From the IMG/VR virus record IMGVR_UViG_2698536610_000001: DNA of 47,772 nt, one strand, 5' to 3'. This document shows positions 1,641 through 20,898 of this stretch, piece by piece. Position numbers and translations under genes: made by a program. The notes under the pieces were generated by a model. It ran no database searches. It worked only from the letters and a program-made list of their open reading frames with translations, and was not told where the DNA came from. The stretch is from a virus (Duplodnaviria > Heunggongvirae > Uroviricota > Caudoviricetes). Positions within the stretch are counted from its first letter, which is position 1. Each line of letters opens with the position of its first letter.

Positions 1641-4112
1641 TTAAGAATCAGCCTGACTCGGGATCAGTTTTTGCCAGATAGCTGAAACGTATTTTGCCTG
1701 GTAACGGGCGTCATCAAGTGCATTATGGCGCTCACCTTCGAATGGAATAGCCGTTCTGGCATCGAAGTCTATGGCTTTCCCCAGCTCAACGATTGTGCGT
1801 ACATCGCGATCGTTGTAGTAACGCCACGGGCAGGGGATTCCCTGCCGTTCGTATGAACGGCGCAAAATCGTGTTGTCGAAGTTGGCTCCATTTCCCCAGA
1901 CATGAACAAAAAATTCACCGGAGTTTTCGTCGATAAATTCCCGCAATTGTAACAGTGCATCATCTAACGGGATTTCATCGGTCATAATGGCAGATTGCGC
2001 TTCGCGTGATTGTTTAAGCCACCATTTAATGGTGTCACGATCAATGACTCCGCCAGCAGTTTCCAGATCGATAGTCTTACTAAATTCCGGTCCCATATCT
2101 CCGGTTTGCGGATCGAAAAATATTGCACCTATTGAGATAATCGGGGCATCGGGATTTTTTCCCATGGTTTCAAGGTCGATCATCAGATGAATCCCCGCTC
2201 TGCTGGTGGATGTGAGATTATGATGACCGTTCGTCTTAATTAAGGGATCTGACGCCTCGCCAGTTTCACTATCGCTGGCATGATGCTGATTGCCGCCAGT
2301 GTTCTCCTTGTGCTGATGCGCAGTGCCTTCCATTTCCTCCGGATCATTTTCCTGAACTTCAGGCTGATTCTCTCCATCGAATATTTCCTGGTATGTTGCG
2401 TCACCCATCACCGCACCACAATCAGGGCAGTTGCCGCCACCGCTATGACCGCAGGCGGTGCAGATCTTTTCCGGTTCCTGTTGCACTACTGGTTCAGGTT
2501 GTTTCGTTTCTGGCTCGTTTTGTTGCGTATTTGGGCTGTTTTGTTCCGCTTTCTGGTCGTTCTGTTCCGTTTCTTGCTGGTTCTGGTTCACAGAATCGAG
2601 GGTCTGGATCCCCTTAACCCATTTCGGATCATTCGGGTCGCTAATCCCTTCAACAAATTCACCACGTGATACTGCAAGCAGTTCATCGGCGTCAGGCTGG
2701 CTGATATTGGCTGCCTGCATAATTTTGTTTACTTCGTCAGAGGTAACTTTTACTGACCCTGGTTGTGCGGTCGTGTCAGATGCACCAGTATTTTGTTGTG
2801 AACCTGAGTATGTACCGTTTTTGCGGGCGAAATATTCTTCTTTCGTGATTTCAGTAGCCCCAGCAGACAGCGCCTTATCCAGACCAGAAAGTTTGTTTGC
2901 GCGACCGTATTTTTCGCCATCCTTGTCGGTGAAGAGGAAGTAGAACGGCCCCTCACGTTCTACAGATGGTTCGACTTCCACTTTGCATTCGGTTTTTTCG
3001 TTGTCTGGAATTGCCGTTTCCACTGCATCAGTTTCTGGTACTGGCGACGAGAGAGTATCAGTTGCGCTCTGATTTGTTCCTTCATCTTCAAACACGCCCT
3101 TTGTAGTCAGGTATTCAGTAATGTATTTGTTCAGTGCCACAGGGTCTTTGTGAATGTCGATCGGACGTTCACGGACAAGGCCAAAAATAGTCTGGCGGTC
3201 GTAGCGAAGGGCATCAGGCTGTTTGCGCATTGATGCCGAGATACGCTTCCAGTCTTCGCGGTCGTTGTCGATAACTTCTTTTTTTGCCCAGCGATGGATG
3301 CTGCCGTCAATGTTTCCGGCATCCACATCACCAGGCCAGAGAGCGTAGGCCAGTTCGTCATCCAGTGTTTTCCATGTCTGCTTGTATTCGCGATGAATGG
3401 CAGCAATGACCGGGTTGATTTTTCCTGTTGAATTTTCAGTGTGCTGTTGATTGGCTCTGGCGCGGGCGAGATCAACAACAGACGTGTATTTTCCGGCTTC
3501 CTTGCGTTCACCTTCGCGACGTTTTTTCCAGATGCGCATCTCTGCCTGAATTTCGGGCCATTTGGCACCAGGCTTACATTTATGCTTAACCCACCCGATG
3601 GCATGCAGCTTAAGCTCCGGATACATAGCGTTAACTTCTGGCATTTTCATCAACGCTTCAACGATATGGCCGTCGAATGTTGCCATGTCTTCCTGCAACA
3701 ATTCCTGTGCGCTAATCACCATATCAACAGTGATGTTTTCACATGTGTGGAACTTAACCATGACAGCGTTCTGTACTTCAGGGGCCAGCTTGTCAAAAGT
3801 GACGTTCATCGGATCGGATTCAGTCTCAACCGGAACAAAAGAAGCAGACGCCTCATCCCAGCGGTTTTCCTGCATATATTCAGCATCCCAGGAATCGAGG
3901 GCAGGGCGGGGTATACCGGGTTTATCCTCGCAAACAAGAAATTTATAAGCGCAGTCCTGAGCAGCCGGATAATGTTCCAGGAATTGCCAGTGAAATTTTG
4001 CTCGAGCACGGCGTTCGTCGCCAGCTTCAATGGCTGTGGCTACAGCCACAGCGCCTTCTTCCCTTGTTGCCAGTTCGTCAGGAATAGCGGCGCAAATAAA
4101 GACTTTACTCAT
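1641..4112 (-). CDS. Prophage exonuclease with C-terminal DnaQ-like DEDDh 3'-5' exonuclease domain and internal Cys4 zinc ribbon
   Basis: 823-aa ORF; C-terminal motifs MIDLETMG (Exo I), HVWGNGANFD (Exo II), HNALDDARYQ (Exo III); CTACGH…CPDCG zinc-ribbon motif; acidic low-complexity linker. Often annotated as exodeoxyribonuclease VIII in databases, but the domain seen here is DnaQ-like. Confidence 0.8.
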   Translation of the reverse strand: MSKVFICAAIPDELATREEGAVAVATAIEAGDERRARAKFHWQFLEHYPAAQDCAYKFLVCEDKPGIPRPALDSWDAEYMQENRWDEASASFVPVETESDPMNVTFDKLAPEVQNAVMVKFHTCENITVDMVISAQELLQEDMATFDGHIVEALMKMPEVNAMYPELKLHAIGWVKHKCKPGAKWPEIQAEMRIWKKRREGERKEAGKYTSVVDLARARANQQHTENSTGKINPVIAAIHREYKQTWKTLDDELAYALWPGDVDAGNIDGSIHRWAKKEVIDNDREDWKRISASMRKQPDALRYDRQTIFGLVRERPIDIHKDPVALNKYITEYLTTKGVFEDEGTNQSATDTLSSPVPETDAVETAIPDNEKTECKVEVEPSVEREGPFYFLFTDKDGEKYGRANKLSGLDKALSAGATEITKEEYFARKNGTYSGSQQNTGASDTTAQPGSVKVTSDEVNKIMQAANISQPDADELLAVSRGEFVEGISDPNDPKWVKGIQTLDSVNQNQQETEQNDQKAEQNSPNTQQNEPETKQPEPVVQQEPEKICTACGHSGGGNCPDCGAVMGDATYQEIFDGENQPEVQENDPEEMEGTAHQHKENTGGNQHHASDSETGEASDPLIKTNGHHNLTSTSRAGIHLMIDLETMGKNPDAPIISIGAIFFDPQTGDMGPEFSKTIDLETAGGVIDRDTIKWWLKQSREAQSAIMTDEIPLDDALLQLREFIDENSGEFFVHVWGNGANFDNTILRRSYERQGIPCPWRYYNDRDVRTIVELGKAIDFDARTAIPFEGERHNALDDARYQAKYVSAIWQKLIPSQADS

Positions 4113-4205
4113 TTTATTTTAACCTCATGACAGATTTAAGGATGAATAAATCCCTGCCATTGCTGGCATATAAGAATGAAACCGGATATTTATTACGGAA
4201 CTGTT

Positions 4206-4397
4206 TTAAAGACCTGCCGGGATTTCGATATTATCCTGGTGAATAACTTTATCGACCGGGTAACAGTTACCGGGAATTTTCTGTTCGGTTGCTGCAGTCA
4301 TACACTCCTGCATTGTCCTGTGAACACTGACTGCAATATCAACTGGCTCTCCGGAAACAAGAAAAACTGTCAGAACAAGCGCAAATGCTGAATTCAT
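4206..4397 (-). CDS. ydfD: YdfD-like small single-TM lysis protein
   Basis: 63-aa ORF MNSAFALVLTVFLVSGEPVDIAVSV… with N-terminal hydrophobic helix; matches remembered Qin YdfD; stop/start overlap with dicB; start set at the internal ATG of the 81-aa track ORF. Confidence 0.7.
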   Translation of the reverse strand: MNSAFALVLTVFLVSGEPVDIAVSVHRTMQECMTAATEQKIPGNCYPVDKVIHQDNIEIPAGL

Positions 4398-4582
4398 TGT
4401 GCACATCTTTTTGGCATCAGACGTAAACGAGCCAGCATTGAAACAATGCATATTTTATTTAATAGCTCCCGTTCTTGTTTTCTCTTGTTAATGGCATCTT
4501 CAGTAAATACTGGGTTACTGATAGTGACACCAATTTCAAAACAACCTTCAGACGTATTAACGTTTGGTAATAACGTTTTCAT
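4394..4582 (-). CDS. dicB: Cell division inhibitor DicB
   Basis: 62-aa ORF MKTLLPNVNTSEGCFEIGVTISNPVFTEDAINKRKQERELLNKICIVSMLARLRLMPK…; matches remembered DicB; GAGGA Shine-Dalgarno upstream; dicF immediately upstream on the same strand. Confidence 0.8.
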   Translation of the reverse strand: MKTLLPNVNTSEGCFEIGVTISNPVFTEDAINKRKQERELLNKICIVSMLARLRLMPKRCAQ

Positions 4583-4751
4583 TATCGCGTCCTCAACAAT
4601 GAATTTTGTGATGCGGTGCCTGGTGCCTCCAGGTGACGTTAACCAGTTAACAATTAACGCCGGATACAGAGAATCCACCCATAACACTGTTTTTGGTTTT
4701 AACTGTTCCGCGTGCGCTCAGCCGCATTCACCACATCACAAAATTCACTTT

Positions 4752-4809
4752 AAAAAGGGCGGCAGAGCAGTCACGGAGTAAAACTGATACCGCCAAACGT
4801 CACCAGAAA
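4752..4809 (-). ncRNA. dicF: DicF small RNA (ftsZ-targeting antisense sRNA) with 3' hairpin and U-tract
   Basis: Minus-strand sequence TTTCTGGTGACGTTTGGCGGTATCAGTTTTACTCCGTGACTGCTCTGCCGCCCTTTTT is readable directly; GGCGG…CTGCCGCC stem followed by a T-run; lies between ydfC and dicB as in Qin. Confidence 0.75.
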
Positions 4810-14600: not shown

Positions 14601-15125
14601 TTATTGTTTAACCCATAATAGTTCATTGACATTGAATCCCAACTTTTGAGCGGTACGCACATAGTCTGCTTTTACATTATCTGGAATAGTTTGGGTCCTT
14701 GCCAGAATCCATAGGTATTCTCTGTTCGGACCACTGACAAGAGCATACTTATACTCATCATCCAGTTTGATTACATTATAGCCACCATAGAAGGGGCCAA
14801 AAAACGAAACTTTCAACGCTGCAGTTTTAGTATCTCCAGTAAAGTATGCTTTACCTTCGCTCTCGCTCCATTTGTTTTTCGTTGGATCGTATCCACGGTT
14901 AAGTACGCGAATCCCTCCGTCGTTCCGTTTTTCATAAGTAGCGCTGACCTGTTCCAGACCACGTTCGAACCAGTTCTCGAGGCGAGCTATTTCATACCAT
15001 TTTCCGAGGTAGCGGTTGGCGTCAAAATTTGTAATCGGCTGCACACCTTTAGGTGGTGTCGGGGCCTTACATGCTATAAGAGTGAAAGAGAGTGCAATGC
15101 CAGTCAACACAGGCCATAACTTCAT
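14601..15125 (-). CDS. Bacterial lipocalin (Blc-like outer-membrane lipoprotein), prophage cargo
   Basis: 174-aa ORF; signal peptide with lipobox LIAC; lipocalin motifs …RYLGKWYEIARLENWFERGLE… and KVSFFGPFYGGYNVI match remembered Blc closely. Confidence 0.85.
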   Translation of the reverse strand: MKLWPVLTGIALSFTLIACKAPTPPKGVQPITNFDANRYLGKWYEIARLENWFERGLEQVSATYEKRNDGGIRVLNRGYDPTKNKWSESEGKAYFTGDTKTAALKVSFFGPFYGGYNVIKLDDEYKYALVSGPNREYLWILARTQTIPDNVKADYVRTAQKLGFNVNELLWVKQ

Positions 15126-15317: not shown

Positions 15318-16277
15318 ATGATAAAAAAACCTGTGATTGGGATCAGCGGTTGTTTGGGCGGTTCTGCTGTTCGTTTTGATGGTGGTCACAAAAGAGATGA
15401 CTTTTTAATGGACAAATTAGTGGAATGGGTAACATTCAGACCAGTATGTCCGGAAATGGCTATAGGGCTGCCAGTTCCGCGTCCTGCTCTACGACTTGTG
15501 CGCTCGAAGCAAGGAAATATACGGATGTGTTTCAGTCACGACCAGAATGAGGATGTGACAGAGAGAATGACAGAGTTTAGTCGTTCTTATATGGACAAAT
15601 TAAAGGATGTATCGGGGTTTGTGGTTTGTGCTAAATCTCCCAGCTGTGGCATGGAGCGCGTGCGTGTCTATGATGAAAATGGTAATCGAGGTCGTAAAGA
15701 TGGAGTGGGACTATTTACGAGCACTTTGATGGAAAAGTTTTCCTGGCTACCGGTTGAAGAGGATGGGCGATTACATGATCCAGTGCTTCGTGAGAATTTT
15801 ATTGAAAGAGTTTTTGCTTTGCATGAGCTCAATCACCTTTACAAGGAGAAATTATCAAGAAGAGAGTTATTAGCTTTTCATAGTCGTTATAAGCTTCAGT
15901 TGTTGGCGCATAGCCAGGCAGGCTATAAAGATATGGGACCATTTGTGGCTGCAATACACGAGTGGGCGGACCTTGAATCATACTTTGAGGTGTATCGTGA
16001 TAATCTGATGGCGATTCTCAGAAAACCAGCATCACGTAAAAATCACACGAATGTGCTGATGCATATACAGGGGTATTTTAGTAATTACTTAAGTACACGC
16101 CAGCGTAAAGAGTTGAGCGAGGTTATACTTAACTATCGTTCTGGCACATTGCCTCTTCTTGCGCCGTTGACTCTGCTGAAGCATTATCTGGGTGAGTATC
16201 CTAATGATTACTTGCTTACACAGAATTACTTCGATCCCTATCCGGAAGAACTGGCTTTAAGGCTGATGGTGAATTAA
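15318..16277 (+). CDS. DUF523/DUF1722 (YbbK/YbgA-like) fusion protein, prophage cargo
   Basis: 319-aa ORF; N-terminal VIGISGCLGG…CPE and C-terminal helical domain resemble the YbgA-type family; assignment from memory. Confidence 0.55.
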   Translation: MIKKPVIGISGCLGGSAVRFDGGHKRDDFLMDKLVEWVTFRPVCPEMAIGLPVPRPALRLVRSKQGNIRMCFSHDQNEDVTERMTEFSRSYMDKLKDVSGFVVCAKSPSCGMERVRVYDENGNRGRKDGVGLFTSTLMEKFSWLPVEEDGRLHDPVLRENFIERVFALHELNHLYKEKLSRRELLAFHSRYKLQLLAHSQAGYKDMGPFVAAIHEWADLESYFEVYRDNLMAILRKPASRKNHTNVLMHIQGYFSNYLSTRQRKELSEVILNYRSGTLPLLAPLTLLKHYLGEYPNDYLLTQNYFDPYPEELALRLMVN

Positions 16278-16756: not shown

Positions 16757-17029
16757 ATGGCCAGAGTTAATATTCATTGTCCCCGTTGTCAGTCAGCTCA
16801 GGTTTACCGCCATGGTCAGAACCCTAAAGGCCGTGACAGATTTCGCTGCCGTGACTGCCACCGTGTGTTTCAGCTCACTTATACTTATCAAGCACGTAAG
16901 CCGGGTATGAAAGAGCTGATAACTGAAATGGCCTTTAATGGTGCCGGGGTTCGCGATACCGCCAGGACAATGAAAATTGGTATTAACACCGTCATCCGGA
17001 CTTTAAAAAACTCGCGCCAAAGCGAATAA
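16757..17029 (+). CDS. insA: IS1 InsA (transposition regulator / N-terminal part of InsAB')
   Basis: MARVNIHCPRCQSAQVYRHGQNPKGRDRFRCRDCHRVFQLTYTYQ… with zinc-finger and HTH as in IS1 InsA. Confidence 0.85.
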   Translation: MARVNIHCPRCQSAQVYRHGQNPKGRDRFRCRDCHRVFQLTYTYQARKPGMKELITEMAFNGAGVRDTARTMKIGINTVIRTLKNSRQSE

Positions 17030-17451
17030 CTTCTTCGCCTGTTGCCCATGCTGATGTGGCGCTTATCTGCGAGCTTGATGAGCAATAGAGCTACGTTGGC
17101 AGTAAAGCCCGGCAACACTGGCTCTGGTACGCGTACAACACCAAAACAGGCGGTGTACTGGCCTACACTTTTGGTCCCCGAACCGATCAAACGTGCCGGG
17201 AGCTACTGGCACTGCTTACACCCTTCAACATCGGCATGCTGACCAGCGATGACTGGGGCAGCTATGGCCGGGAGGTGCCGAAGAATAAGCATCTGACCGG
17301 CAAAATATTCACCCAACGCATTGAGCGTAATAATCTGACGCTACGCACCCGCATTAAGCGGTTGGCTCGTAAAATAATCTGCTTCTCACGCTCAGTTGAG
17401 ATCCACGAAAAAGTGATCGGAGCGTTTATCGAAAAACACATGTTCTACTAA
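17030..17451 (+). pseudogene. insB: IS1 insB frame interrupted by an in-frame amber codon
   Basis: The InsB frame (-1 relative to insA) reads …ALICELDEQ*SYVGSKARQHWLWYAYN…; TAG at 17086-17088 replaces the Trp of the remembered DEQWGYVG motif; the distal part (17236-17451) is intact. Confidence 0.55.
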
Positions 17452-17470
17452 TTGGATGCACTACCATCAC

Positions 17471-17847
17471 TTGCATGTCTTGCTATCTTATCTTCAGAGA
17501 AAATAGTGCAAAGGTTTTTATTTGGGTGTCTTAATAGTTTAGGAAGTAAAGTTAAGGCTATTATCCACAAGGATATATCTGCAACATGGAGACTTTGTGA
17601 TATATCTTCAAGACTGTGCCTGAGTGAAAGTTTGTTAAAAAGAAAATTAAAACACGAAGGCTTATCATTTGGTAAACTAAATCTTGAAGAGCGAATGGTG
17701 ATGGCGGAAAGCTTATTAAGCTACAATTTATATTCTGTTGGGAAAGTTGCTGAGATATGCGGTTATGAAAATACGTCATATTTTGTAAGTGTTTTCAGAA
17801 GATATTTTGGTGTTCCTCTCCACAAATATTCATCAAGATTTTTTTAG
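17471..17847 (+). pseudogene. AraC-family regulator, C-terminal HTH fragment (5' end replaced by IS1)
   Basis: The ORF reads out of the IS1 right end; only an AraC-type HTH domain of about 125 aa remains (…YENTSYFVSVFRRYFGVPLHKY…); AT-rich. Confidence 0.5.
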
Positions 17848-18053
17848 AAAAACACATGATGTAACGTGATGCGATTTAATGATTTTGTAATTTTCGTATT
17901 TGATAATTTTATGATGCTTTCAGCTACGCCAGAATAATCGCTGGCGTTTTTCTTTTTGAATAGATGTTCAGGCCTTACGCTAATGTAACTTCTATACCTT
18001 TCCCTCTTCGTTCCGAACCGTGTACACCATCCGTTATTTGCGGAGGTGAGGCT

Positions 18054-18269
18054 ATGAAATCCATGGACAAGTTAACAACGGGCATTGCCTACGGCACCTC
18101 CGCAGGCAGTGCTGGCTACTGGTTTTTACAGTGGCTTGATCAGGTCAGTCCATCACAGTGGGCTGCTATTGGTGTGCTGGGAAGTCTGGTTCTGGGCTTT
18201 CTGACTTACCTGACGAATCTGTACTTCAAAATAAGAGAAGACAAGCGTAAAGCTGCGCGGGGAGAGTAA
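18054..18269 (+). CDS. Class II holin (phage 21 S-type pinholin) with dual-start motif
   Basis: [71 protein letters not shown]; two TM segments; GGAGGTGAG Shine-Dalgarno; Met1/Met4 starts. Confidence 0.85.
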
Positions 18270-18273
18270 TTCA

Positions 18274-18618
18274 ATGACTCAAAACTATGAACTGATTGTG
18301 AAAGGGATCCGCAATTTTGAGAATAAAGTTACGGTAACTTTAGCGTTACGGGACAAAGAACGCTTTGACGGTGAAATTTTTGACCTGGACATCTCGCTGG
18401 ACCGTGTTGAAGGTGCCGCGCTGGAGTTTTATGAGGCAGCAGCCAGAAGGAGCATCAGACAGGTCTTCCTGGATGTTGCTGCCGGGTTATGTGAAGGGGA
18501 TGAGCTGTCGCCGGAAAAGCGCCCCATAATTTTAGAGGCGCAGAATGTGTGGATAACCTACAAAGGAAAGCTACCGGGAAGAATTACTGGTTCTCTGAAG
18601 ACTCCGCCGAAATGGTAA
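18274..18618 (+). CDS. YdfR-like (DUF1327) protein inserted between holin and endolysin
   Basis: 114-aa ORF starting 5 nt after the holin stop; position and N-terminus match remembered Qin YdfR. Confidence 0.5.
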   Translation: MTQNYELIVKGIRNFENKVTVTLALRDKERFDGEIFDLDISLDRVEGAALEFYEAAARRSIRQVFLDVAAGLCEGDELSPEKRPIILEAQNVWITYKGKLPGRITGSLKTPPKW

Positions 18619-18856
18619 TTTCACCAGCATATTTTTCTTCCAGTAATACCGCCAGCCACTTGAAAGAATTTTGTTGTTGCTGGGACCATTTGGGGTTGAG
18701 TGATTCAAGCTGGAGCGATGCCAGTGTTGGTTGCATTTGTTCCTTGGGAATTGAGAATGCCAGATATGAAAATGCGACAGTAAGGGCATTTACATCATCC
18801 CGAAGCTTGGAAATGCAGTCGAGCAACTCCTGTAGAGAAATGGTGCTATTGTCCAT
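18584..18856 (-). CDS. Hypothetical 90-aa protein, antisense within the lysis cassette
   Basis: ATG preceded by a strong SD (AGAGAGGA, about 6 nt); convergent with and overlapping the ydfR-like 3' end by about 35 nt; no family recognised. Confidence 0.35.
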   Translation of the reverse strand: MDNSTISLQELLDCISKLRDDVNALTVAFSYLAFSIPKEQMQPTLASLQLESLNPKWSQQQQNSFKWLAVLLEEKYAGEITISAESSENQ

Positions 18857-18961
18857 AAACAATCCTCTCTATTGTATTTAACTATTCCTTGCCTGATTCA
18901 ACAGGCCGGGACAGATAAACATATCCAGGGTTCAGAAACCGATAAATCCTGATAAATATCC

Positions 18962-19504
18962 ATGAACGTAAAAATCAGATACGGCCTGTCGGCTGCCGTT
19001 CTGGCACTGATTGCCGTCGGTGCGCCTGCGCCTGATATTCTCGACCAGTTTCTGAATGAAAAAGAAGGTAACCACACAACGGCATACCGCGATGGTTCCG
19101 GCATCTGGACCATCTGTCGGGGTGCCACGGTGGTGGATGGAAAACCCGTTTTTCCCGGTATGAAACTGTCGAAGGAAAAATGCGACCAGGTTAACGCCAT
19201 TGAACGGGATAAGGCGCTGGCATGGGTGGAGCGCAATATTAAAGTGCCACTGACCGAACCACAGAAAGCGGGTATAGCGTCATTTTGTCCCTATAACATT
19301 GGCCCCGGTAAGTGTTTCCCGTCGACGTTTTATAAGCGGCTGAATGCCGATGATCGTAAGGGGGCATGCGAGGCGATTCGCTGGTGGATAAAAGATGGTG
19401 GGCGTGATTGCCGCCTGACAAAAGGGCAGAAGAATGGCTGTTATGGGCAGGTCGAGCGGCGCGATCAGGAAAGCGCACTGGCGTGCTGGGGGCTGGAGCA
19501 ATGA
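18962..19504 (+). CDS. SAR endolysin (T4-lysozyme-like, phage 21 R-type)
   Basis: N-terminal Ala/Gly-rich signal-anchor (LSAAVLALIAVGAPAP); catalytic E-x8-D-x5-T triad in NEKEGNHTTAYRDGSGIWTICRG. Confidence 0.85.
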   Translation: MNVKIRYGLSAAVLALIAVGAPAPDILDQFLNEKEGNHTTAYRDGSGIWTICRGATVVDGKPVFPGMKLSKEKCDQVNAIERDKALAWVERNIKVPLTEPQKAGIASFCPYNIGPGKCFPSTFYKRLNADDRKGACEAIRWWIKDGGRDCRLTKGQKNGCYGQVERRDQESALACWGLEQ

Positions 19505-20037
19505 AAATTAATCCGGATCTTATAGGCGTTGTCGTTATTGCTGGCCTTTCGGTCGCTCTCGTCAAGAGTTGCTCTCACGCCAGTAATCTTCAGAGCGATA
19601 ACGACGTTCTGCGAAGTGACAACTCTATGCTGGGGCAGGTAATCGCCACCCAGGCATTCAACTTCAATCGATTCAATCAGGTTGCAGAACATGCCAACAG
19701 TCTTAACTCCCTGATCGACACCAGCACCGAAAAAACCGTAATCGAATACCGGGAGATTCTCCGCCGTGAAAAAACCTGTGATCTGCCTGTTCCTGCTGAT
19801 ATCGCTGGTGGGTTGCTCGAATACACGTACCGTTTACGTGCCAGCGCCATGCACACCGATACCGGCAGACCTAATGAAGCCTATGATCGTACCGCTACCA
19901 CCAGCTCAATGACCTACTGCCAAGCTGTCTTGTGGATTAAGCCGCTACTGGCGTTGATAGAAAAAGGAAATAATAATTTTTCGAGTATTCGTGAAATTGA
20001 TGAGTTGCGTTACAGACCATCTGAGCATGGCCAGTAA
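19501..20037 (+). CDS. Rz i-spanin
   Basis: ATG overlaps the endolysin stop; N-terminal TM (LIGVVVIAGLSVALV) then helical periplasmic domain; embedded Rz1 frame. Confidence 0.8.
   Translation: MKINPDLIGVVVIAGLSVALVKSCSHASNLQSDNDVLRSDNSMLGQVIATQAFNFNRFNQVAEHANSLNSLIDTSTEKTVIEYREILRREKTCDLPVPADIAGGLLEYTYRLRASAMHTDTGRPNEAYDRTATTSSMTYCQAVLWIKPLLALIEKGNNNFSSIREIDELRYRPSEHGQ
19766..19912 (+). CDS. Rz1 o-spanin lipoprotein, embedded in the +1 frame of Rz
   Basis: Hand translation: (GTG)KKPVICLFLLISLVGCSNTRTVYVPAPCTPIPADLMKPMIVPLPPAQ; lipobox LVGC; Pro-rich; GGGAG SD 10 nt upstream. Confidence 0.7.
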   Translation: MKKPVICLFLLISLVGCSNTRTVYVPAPCTPIPADLMKPMIVPLPPAQ

Positions 20038-20205: not shown

Positions 20206-20898
20206 TCAAATCTTATCTAACTCATTATAGGCTTCGATAATAAAAATTCTGATTTTAATAAGGCATGATTCAATGAAAGGAATTACTTCATGGTCATTCC
20301 CATGGAATCTTATTTTTTTCTCTTCGGTAATGACTATGTTTAAAGGTACACCATTACCACTTCTTTGTAATTTCCCATTTTCGAAAGTAAAGTCTTCTAA
20401 TTTTTTGCCATTGATGTGGTTGTTTTTAAAGAGAATTTTTGCTGAGCTTCCTGCTGTGATTAAACCAAAACCATCTACGCTCACACTTAGGTCTTTAACA
20501 GAACTCTCTTCTCTTAAGGGGATTGGTTGTCTGTGCTTTACTTCATTAGTGAGATTACACATCATTTCCAACCAAGATTCGCCAGTGTGATAATCCTGTA
20601 TAGAAGTAAAAATTTTATATAATGGAGAAGATGATGGTGGGTTTATTTTTAGCGTCTTTGAGAAAAATTTATCAATAAACTCTTTTTTTCCGTAAGGGAA
20701 ATATATTTTGGGGCGCTCATCATTACTGCGTGGAGAAATATATTTATCATAGGTATCATTAGCGAGATACTCTAAGGAACTTCGTAAGTTTTCCAAAATA
20801 GCTTTGACTTTTACAGGCTTGATATGCTGTGTCTGTCTCATTATGTCAAGACTTTCTTCAACTTCTTGCAATAAGTCTAACGAGCCTTCTCTAGACAT
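20206..20898 (-). CDS. Hypothetical 230-aa protein in an AT-rich island (moron)
   Basis: Long ORF in strongly AT-rich DNA where chance ORFs are unlikely; opposite to phage late transcription, in the position lambda uses for bor; no motif recognised. Confidence 0.6.
   Translation of the reverse strand: MSREGSLDLLQEVEESLDIMRQTQHIKPVKVKAILENLRSSLEYLANDTYDKYISPRSNDERPKIYFPYGKKEFIDKFFSKTLKINPPSSSPLYKIFTSIQDYHTGESWLEMMCNLTNEVKHRQPIPLREESSVKDLSVSVDGFGLITAGSSAKILFKNNHINGKKLEDFTFENGKLQRSGNGVPLNIVITEEKKIRFHGNDHEVIPFIESCLIKIRIFIIEAYNELDKI

Follow-up and report, generated by a model that had tools for sequence, protein, structure and literature searches.

The lysis cassette of the tailed virus record IMGVR_UViG_2698536610_000001 (IMG/VR; Duplodnaviria, Heunggongvirae, Uroviricota, Caudoviricetes), a stretch of 47,772 nucleotides (nt; hereafter the window), carries two small additional genes between the holin gene S and the endolysin gene R: a ydfR-like gene on the late strand and, convergent to it, an open reading frame (ORF) of 90 codons that we refer to as ORF90. 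The window is a lambdoid prophage of Escherichia coli of the Qin/phage-21 type. We consider it likely that ORF90 is a real protein-coding moron, a cargo gene acquired independently, situated between the accessory gene ydfR and the endolysin gene, that it is transcribed leftward from a weak promoter of its own and switched off by late transcription, and that its overlap with ydfR is a by-product. Judged by its sequence, ORF90 is a phage-borne version of a small chromosomal gene of Serratia and its relatives; for that reason we regard it as passenger cargo and not as a part of the lysis machinery. The features concerned are the following.

18274-18618, plus strand: YdfR/DUF1327 gene of 114 amino acids (Pfam PF07041, phrog_406)
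18856 (ATG) to 18584-18586 (stop), minus strand: ORF90, 90 amino acids (RefSeq WP_000370545.1, hypothetical; phrog_2411)
18584-18618, both strands: convergent 3' overlap of ydfR and ORF90, 35 nt

The first-pass annotation, made from the letters of the window, had placed two extra genes between holin and endolysin, a YdfR-like gene of 114 amino acids and a convergent frame of 90 amino acids overlapping its 3' end. Both genes are found at these coordinates, the former with a DUF1327 match of 144 bits, and the overlap of 35 nt spans merely the last 11 codons of each gene. An alternative TTG start two codons upstream would extend the ORF90 product to 92 amino acids. Neither gene is new as such: RefSeq, through its Prokaryotic Genome Annotation Pipeline, already calls both (as "YdfR family protein" and as the hypothetical protein WP_000370545.1), and PHROGs already holds both families (406 and 2411). 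The locus is also far from rare. A stretch of 1,651 nt around the lysis cassette is 100% identical to E. coli strains PK8566, MB06171 and 23AR0885, and the ORF90 region is found at a coverage of at least 80% in 1,053 of 5,426 complete E. coli genomes (about one in five), including BL21, where the copy lies in the Rac remnant.

That the frame could be an independent cargo gene was one of two options offered by the first-pass annotation, and it is the option favoured by the anatomy of the locus, since most of ORF90 lies on a low-GC indel that is missing in collinear phages.

18610-18900: segment of about 291 nt that PhiR40_1 and BP-4795 lack (indel in the three-way DNA alignment)

Apart from this segment, PhiR40_1 and BP-4795 are collinear with the window in this region, and cassettes lacking ORF90 keep the same S, ydfR, R and Rz genes. 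The GC content of the indel (0.416) differs from that of the neighbouring genes ydfR (0.485) and R (0.541). The segment holds codons 1-82 of ORF90, its Shine-Dalgarno (SD) sequence, a hypervariable spacer of 35 nt (nucleotide diversity 0.134) and a promoter-like TTGAAT-N19-TACAAT. Codons 83-90 and the stop of ORF90 lie in ydfR sequence that is also found in phages without ORF90, and the last two codons of YdfR (KW) with their stop lie on the indel. The two genes thus overlap because each ends in the flank of the other. Within the overlap the ratio of nonsynonymous to synonymous substitution rates (dN/dS) has a value of 0.30 for the frame of ydfR and of 0.90 for that of ORF90, and residues 80-90 of the ORF90 protein, the part that overlaps ydfR, form a disordered tail in the AlphaFold2 prediction; constraint on the ydfR side and disorder on the other are explained by the ORF90 3' end reading into pre-existing ydfR sequence. 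The overlap would be a by-product of the junction, in which the last eight codons and the stop of ORF90 fell in ydfR and came to specify an unconstrained tail.

The same YdfR tail is present in PhiR40_1, where it ends in ...GSLKTPPESQP* with 63 nt to R, and in BP-4795, where it ends in ...GSLKTPPLA* with 50 nt to R. The comparison with K-12 and the linkage at 125 of 125 loci had made the tail of YdfR-114 a candidate part of the ORF90 module; this was rejected, as these two phages have the tail without ORF90. In the comparison with the Qin prophage of K-12, homology is interrupted between about 18480, at YdfR residue 69, and about 18952, which lies 10 nt ahead of the R ATG. Qin lacks the block from about 18480 to 18951, so that the window has some 470 nt where K-12 has some 75 nt; K-12 has no ORF90, and its ydfR stop and rrrQ start share the sequence ATGA. 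More generally, YdfR was found in 101 phage records and ORF90 in 3 of these.

18901-18961, plus strand: R leader, common to phages without ORF90 (nucleotide diversity 0.033, versus 0.082 at the third codon positions of ORF90)

This conserved block of 61 nt by the start of R was considered as an ORF90 promoter and rejected because it is common to phages without ORF90. As to the endolysin gene itself, no SD sequence is visible at its start (18901-18964), and in the window ydfR and R are 343 nt apart with no small upstream ORF that could couple the translation of R.

The distribution of the ORF90 family, which is restricted to Enterobacterales, likewise favours the cargo option, with homologs found elsewhere in phage late regions and as stand-alone genes on chromosomes of the Serratia type. 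A chromosomal survey, in which one genome per species was scanned, yielded 42 loci. At 40 of them the homolog (X) occupies a fixed site, pyrC-dinI-X-bssS-solA, with no phage genes detected nearby. These 40 loci belong to about 25 Serratia species and to Chimaeribacter, Hafnia, Biostraticola, Acerihabitans and Sodalis, insect symbionts included. The chromosomal homologs share the strand of their neighbours and lack a partner-like convergent ORF (two chance convergent ORFs at the site end in unrelated sequence); the Serratia homolog is located after the dinI terminator and has an AAGGAG SD sequence of its own. All E. coli copies seen were prophage-borne, and the dinI-bssS spacer of E. coli K-12 (286 nt) holds no remnant of the family. 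Since K-12 has no copy at this site, prophages are the only carriers of the family in the E. coli cases found. The phage copies were located at the following sites, and in every arrangement seen they face against the late genes.

E. coli: between ydfR and R
Stx2k phage: between ydfR and a second, unrelated lysis cassette
Citrobacter: upstream of the holin gene
Further site: after Rz, before the terminase genes
Further sites: next to or between minor tail genes

The spread of the homologs over sites in the late region argues against a dedicated role in lysis. In hosts without the chromosomal dinI-X-bssS gene, the phage copy probably provides or imitates what that gene does. As a side observation on one of these sites, phage phiSTEC1575-Stx2k (L004) has at 3165-4803 an S21-type holin gene, ydfR and ORF90, followed by the second lysis set, which comprises two holin-like genes and an M15 peptidase replacing the lysozyme; its homology to the window ends exactly at the start codon of R.

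For the coding status of ORF90, 125 homologous loci were fetched from viral contigs, annotated genomes and phage records, which together with the window gave 126 sequences. These comprise 35 distinct ORF90 sequences with 88.6-100% DNA identity and without indels. The full 90-codon frame is kept in 120 of the 126, which by itself is weak evidence for coding. A profile built from the E. coli ORF90 proteins and run against 1.8 billion representatives retrieved proteins of the same length with 30-56% identity, and a second profile search named Citrobacter, many species of Serratia, Sodalis, Chimaeribacter, Chania, Gibbsiella and Acerihabitans as sources of homologs. Homologs of this length from Serratia, Sodalis, Chimaeribacter and Citrobacter share 30-40% identity and reach E-values of 1e-30; a scan for distant ORF90 homologs with the single protein P0067 gave no match. 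The family alignment shows the motifs ELL..I, AFSYLAFS, L..ES.N and Q..F..LA, and phrog_2411 matches residues 1-90 of 90 with E=2.2e-59. The first-pass annotation had let its case depend on conservation of the antisense frame, and homologs of the frame indeed range from 99% down to about 30% identity. On these comparisons we take the protein-coding status of ORF90 as settled.

The substitution pattern agrees with this, with one caution. In the ORF90 frame dN/dS is 0.36 overall and 0.23 over codons 1-47, versus 0.74 and 1.3 in the other two frames of the same strand, and the variable sites per codon position number 18/22/39 (chi-square p=0.009). A shadow ORF of 110 amino acids on the plus strand opposite ORF90 (18549-18881) has its third codon positions in common with ORF90 and scores 0.30, and therefore dN/dS alone cannot choose the coding strand. 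This near reproduction of the ORF90 value is a warning for conservation tests on antisense genes in general. Coding on the plus strand was rejected: in several divergent clades with an intact minus frame (L099, L091, L085, L087 and L004) the plus frame is interrupted by one or two stops, and its own stop codon is not conserved.

The ORF90 protein is acidic and predicted to be soluble. AlphaFold2 on the family alignment gave three helices (residues 8-34, 38-52 and 59-78) with a mean predicted local distance difference test score (pLDDT) of 81.8, and no transmembrane segment or signal sequence was found (Kyte-Doolittle maximum 0.88). The protein contains the peptide LRDDVNALTVAFSYLAFSIPK. Foldseek gave nothing informative against the PDB (best E 4.4) or BFVD (best E 0.5), and neither did a sequence-profile search of the PDB with the family (best hit YibL, E=0.13). 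Neither ORF90 nor its family had a match in Pfam, NCBIfam or PADLOC. ORF90 matched no PHROG of the lysis category and thus belongs to none of the holins, antiholins, endolysins, spanins or known lysis regulators; PADLOC matched neither ORF90 nor YdfR nor the chromosomal homologs, which places none of them among known defence or toxin-antitoxin systems. The chromosomal neighbour BssS was considered as a relative and is not related. Searches of the literature with the ORF90 accessions, the PHROG number and 'ybl58' found nothing. ORF90 is best described as a small soluble helical protein that probably acts through protein-protein contacts.

The signals through which ORF90 would be expressed are listed below.

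18870-18863, minus strand: SD sequence AGAGAGGA, GAGG core 7 nt before the ATG
18901-18871, minus strand: best sigma-70-like candidate, TTGAAT-N19-TACAAT (position-weight scan score 11.4)
18519-18541, minus strand: 7-bp GC-rich hairpin followed by UUUUCC (RNA fold), 43 nt past the ORF90 stop and inside the ydfR tail

The strong ribosome-binding site ascribed to the antisense frame in the first-pass annotation is thus present, and the stretch GAGGATT(G/A)TTTATG with its GAGGA core is invariant across variant upstream sequences. The promoter candidate is weak, with 6% of shuffled sequences scoring as high, and its ACAAT is conserved across variants. The hairpin is a marginal terminator candidate with four U only, and the same sequence is present in phages without ORF90. 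No LexA boxes were seen by eye upstream of ORF90 or of the Serratia homolog. In a scan of 17850-19100 for terminators the sole terminator-like site was the strong hairpin ACGCCAGAATAATCGCTGGCGT with a T-run at 17926-17947 on the plus strand, about 100 nt upstream of the holin start, which late transcription would have to read through.

We propose that in the lysogen, while the late operon is silent, ORF90 would be transcribed leftward from its own weak promoter and translated from the GAGGA ribosome-binding site, and that its product may bind a partner, as is usual for small helical proteins of such size. During lytic growth the Q-antiterminated late transcription would run head-on over ORF90 and should shut it off.

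Several observations weigh against this proposal. A strict consensus scan of 17850-19100 on either strand found no sigma-70 promoter, and the candidate named above has a long spacer of 19 nt and a predicted start at about 18864, inside the SD sequence. The terminator scan over the same interval accepted none after ORF90, the hairpin at 18519-18541 falling below its criteria. Searches by protein accessions and PHROG number found no expression data for ORF90. Among the 126 sequences there are four singleton nonsense alleles and one allele that is a codon short, and the purifying selection is moderate, not strong. Finally, the convergent overlap recurs in all six phage arrangements, which pure hitch-hiking does not explain.

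More specifically, the ORF90 homolog in each of these six arrangements shares 7-35 nt with the 3' end of a small, convergent late-strand gene. The partners are as follows.

E. coli (window): YdfR-114, C-terminus ...GRITGSLKTPPKW
Citrobacter and Salmonella: 63 amino acids, C-terminus ...EKITGSLRAPIKL
L140 and L152: 62 amino acids, C-terminus ...RLTGDILIPLES
L147: 85 amino acids, C-terminus ...QIFGDLKKPPSY
L144: 60 amino acids, C-terminus ...LRDGSLVSF
L142: 85 amino acids, C-terminus without a clear motif

We regard this convergent pairing as a real regularity, which may stem from shared ancestry of a two-gene block or from a functional link. The latter would mean that ORF90 and the small convergent late protein work as a pair, with the YdfR tail ...ITGSLKTPPKW as the partner here and proteins of 60-85 amino acids ending in ITGSLRAPIKL, LTGDILIPLES or FGDLKKPPSY as the partners elsewhere; such a pair could act as a toggle between lysogeny and lytic growth, or as an exclusion or toxin-antitoxin-like module in which the late partner counteracts the protein expressed in the lysogen. 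ORF90 homologs with no more than 30-63% identity show the same pairing, and the C-termini of the partners resemble each other more than the overlapping ORF90 tails do. An N-terminal helix of the form (S/T)LE..V..LE is common to three partners, those of Citrobacter and L140 both begin with MTLEQ and align over their full length, and hhalign aligns the C-terminus of the partner family to that of YdfR-114 with P=7e-4. The homology is weak, however: hhalign gives a probability of only 26%, and YdfR did not come up in a profile search with the partners. Moreover, the two genes are found apart: in BP-4795, PhiR40_1 and Salmonella the tail or the partner is present and an ORF90 homolog is missing or reduced to its last third, and the 40 chromosomal loci have the homolog without a partner. 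No PADLOC match was obtained, and phage genomes are so dense that an insert in reverse orientation always has a convergent neighbour. All in all we consider a working pair unlikely.

In the Salmonella enterica prophages (L149-L151, at about 3158-3421) the 63-amino-acid partner is intact and the ORF90 homolog is cut to its last third (...QQNSFKHLAKELEERLGSSITIL), the rest being replaced by an unrelated late-strand gene of 83 amino acids; a real Bor gene lies antisense after the lysis genes at the Salmonella loci.

A bolder version of this idea, to which we likewise give little credence, is a mobile cassette that combines a three-helix protein derived from the host dinI-X-bssS gene with a convergent, 3'-overlapping small protein or tail ending in ITGSLKxPPxW. 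Lambdoid phages of Enterobacterales would shift it among their late regions, and its two products, one made in the lysogen and one late, would be mutually antagonistic or hit a common host target. If so, this target could be RNase E, contacted by the N-domain of YdfR, which in E. coli is joined to the partner tail, and the cassette would be a state-dependent switch of a kind not yet described.

The other option in the first-pass annotation was that the antisense overlap affects the timing of lysis. In that case ORF90 transcription would enter ydfR, and perhaps the holin gene, from the opposite side; the timing of lysis would be tuned because the ORF90 RNA or the polymerase traffic damps any leaky or premature expression of S, ydfR and R, and the protein would be secondary. 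The 35 nt shared by the convergent 3' ends would permit this, given that no strong intrinsic terminator follows ORF90, as would the displacement of R, which the insertion puts at 343 nt from ydfR (a stop/start overlap in K-12) and which has no visible SD sequence; the 3' overlap of 7-35 nt in six of six phage arrangements is also in line with it. Nevertheless, it is the protein that is under selection, conserved down to 30% identity at non-phage sites without a convergent partner, and the constraint within the overlap follows the ydfR frame (0.30 versus 0.90) and not the RNA duplex. Furthermore, the overlap involves only the last 11 codons per gene, which on the ORF90 side make up the predicted disordered tail, in two of the phage arrangements the neighbours are tail genes instead of lysis genes, and there are phages with the same S-ydfR-R genes and without ORF90. 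Nothing in our analysis points directly to a role of the overlap in lysis timing, and we judge such a regulator improbable.

That ORF90 is no gene at all, being a chance or shadow ORF opposite the plus-strand frame (18549/18612-18881) or a non-coding spacer, is very improbable indeed and effectively refuted by the distant homologs, which have the same length at 30-40% identity in other genera and other genomic contexts; the equally low dN/dS of the plus frame (0.30), the second codon positions that vary slightly more than the first and the four nonsense alleles can be cited in its favour, but the plus frame has stops in several clades and a stop of its own that is not conserved, it would specify a Cys- and Ser-rich product without an SD sequence, and the structure prediction for ORF90 is confident.

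The reading as a moron being thus preferred, the remainder of the cassette and its surroundings can be described briefly. Its other components are listed here.

18054-18269, plus strand: class II (phage 21 S-type) holin of 71 amino acids (PF04971, E=3.5e-35; 'class II holin family protein' in RefSeq for PK8566)
18962-19504, plus strand: endolysin, rrrQ-type lysozyme (Phage_lysozyme, PF00959, E=1e-23; RefSeq name rrrQ)
19501-20037, plus strand: Rz-like spanin (phrog_214, E=2e-54)
19766-19912, within Rz: embedded lipoprotein ORF, candidate Rz1 (ORF list)

The holin gene has two possible starts (Met1 and Met4), and the N-terminus of the lysozyme, YGLSAAVLALIAVGAPAP, is hydrophobic and rich in Ala and Gly, with a Kyte-Doolittle maximum of 1.87 at residue 9 (19-residue window). 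This segment resembles a signal-anchor-release (SAR) sequence, and the flanks of the two extra genes therefore have the features expected from sequence of a pinholin and a SAR endolysin, as the first-pass annotation had supposed, in a cassette of the phage 21 type.

YdfR is a separate accessory late gene. Its product matches PF07041 over residues 1-112 with 144.2 bits (cut-off 25; E=1.5e-42) and phrog_406 over residues 1-114 of 114 (E=2.5e-67). Residues 1-69 form the N-domain, also present in K-12 YdfR with 82% identity over 74 residues, and residues 70-112 the C-terminal tail shared with PhiR40_1 and BP-4795, the family being mosaic at about residue 66-69. Codons 1-69 have a dN/dS of 0.48, the tail one of 0.38 and the overlap one of 0.30. 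For K-12 YdfR, two-hybrid assays showed that residues 1-72 interact with RNase E, in its N-terminal catalytic half, and with the paralog RNase G; Rne(1-598) was recovered together with full-length Strep-tagged YdfR, the purified material contained RNA as well, and ydfR is silent under standard growth conditions (PMC13232886). In Serratia and Chimaeribacter (L127, L137-L139 and L159-L198) rne, the gene for RNase E, lies about 2 kb upstream of dinI-X-bssS; that the E. coli ORF90 homolog adjoins the RNase E-binding YdfR is probably a coincidence of synteny.

Other cargo surrounds the cassette. The region between the Q antiterminator and S holds a lipocalin gene (14601-15125, minus strand) and a YbgA-like gene with 2-thiouracil desulfurase and DUF1722 domains (15318-16277). 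In the same region (16757-17847) IS1 (insA/insB, 16757-17451) interrupts an AraC-family helix-turn-helix gene, of which the C-terminal 131 codons are left (17452-17847); in the identical strain both are tagged as pseudogenes by RefSeq. Between Rz and the terminase genes a 230-amino-acid ORF (20206-20898, minus strand) runs against the late operon. It had no match in Pfam or PADLOC and may be another moron; PK8566, whose lysis cassette is identical, has IS1 and a different hypothetical gene in this position.

What the analysis adds to the existing annotation is the proof that ORF90 is coding, the exact boundaries of the indel, an explanation of the overlap, the link to the chromosomal family and the recurrent convergent partner. 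For annotators this means that the reverse-strand ORF in a very common lysis cassette of E. coli prophages is a real gene but not a lysis gene, and that its overlap with ydfR is probably an artefact of the junction. The orphan family phrog_2411 is now tied to a conserved chromosomal gene beside dinI and bssS in Serratia, Sodalis and relatives, which provides two experimental entry points to an uncharacterised small protein. The convergent pairing, if functional, would constitute a new type of prophage accessory module; otherwise ORF90 is one more moron.

Morons of lambdoid phages are a concept of Hendrix and Juhala; examples in phage lambda are bor, antisense just after Rz, and lom. Like these lambdoid morons, ORF90 is a single small gene that is present in only some of otherwise collinear phages; it lies between late genes, has a GC content below that of its neighbours, is oriented against the late operon and has its own ribosome-binding site. 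Unlike them, it has no clear flanking pair of promoter and terminator, its 3' end reads into the neighbouring gene instead of a terminator of its own, and its predicted product is a soluble helical protein and not a lipoprotein or outer-membrane protein. Compared with essQ-ydfR-rrrQ-rzpQ of the K-12 Qin prophage and S-R-Rz of phage 21, the window shares the holin family, the YdfR N-domain, the lysozyme and Rz, whereas Qin has a different YdfR C-terminus (103 amino acids in all), the overlap of the ydfR stop with the rrrQ start and no ORF90. By sequence, the YdfR of the window retains the N-terminal 69-74 residues that carried the interaction with RNase E; the binding was shown for the K-12 protein only, and the window protein has a different tail of 45 residues. 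Finally, the uncharacterised chromosomal dinI-X-bssS gene of Serratia, Chimaeribacter, Hafnia and Sodalis (some 89-97 amino acids) belongs to the same family as ORF90, with the same length and motifs and profile E-values of about 1e-17 to 1e-27. It differs in that the identity is only 30-40% and in being inherited vertically at a fixed site, on the strand of its neighbours and with no convergent partner.

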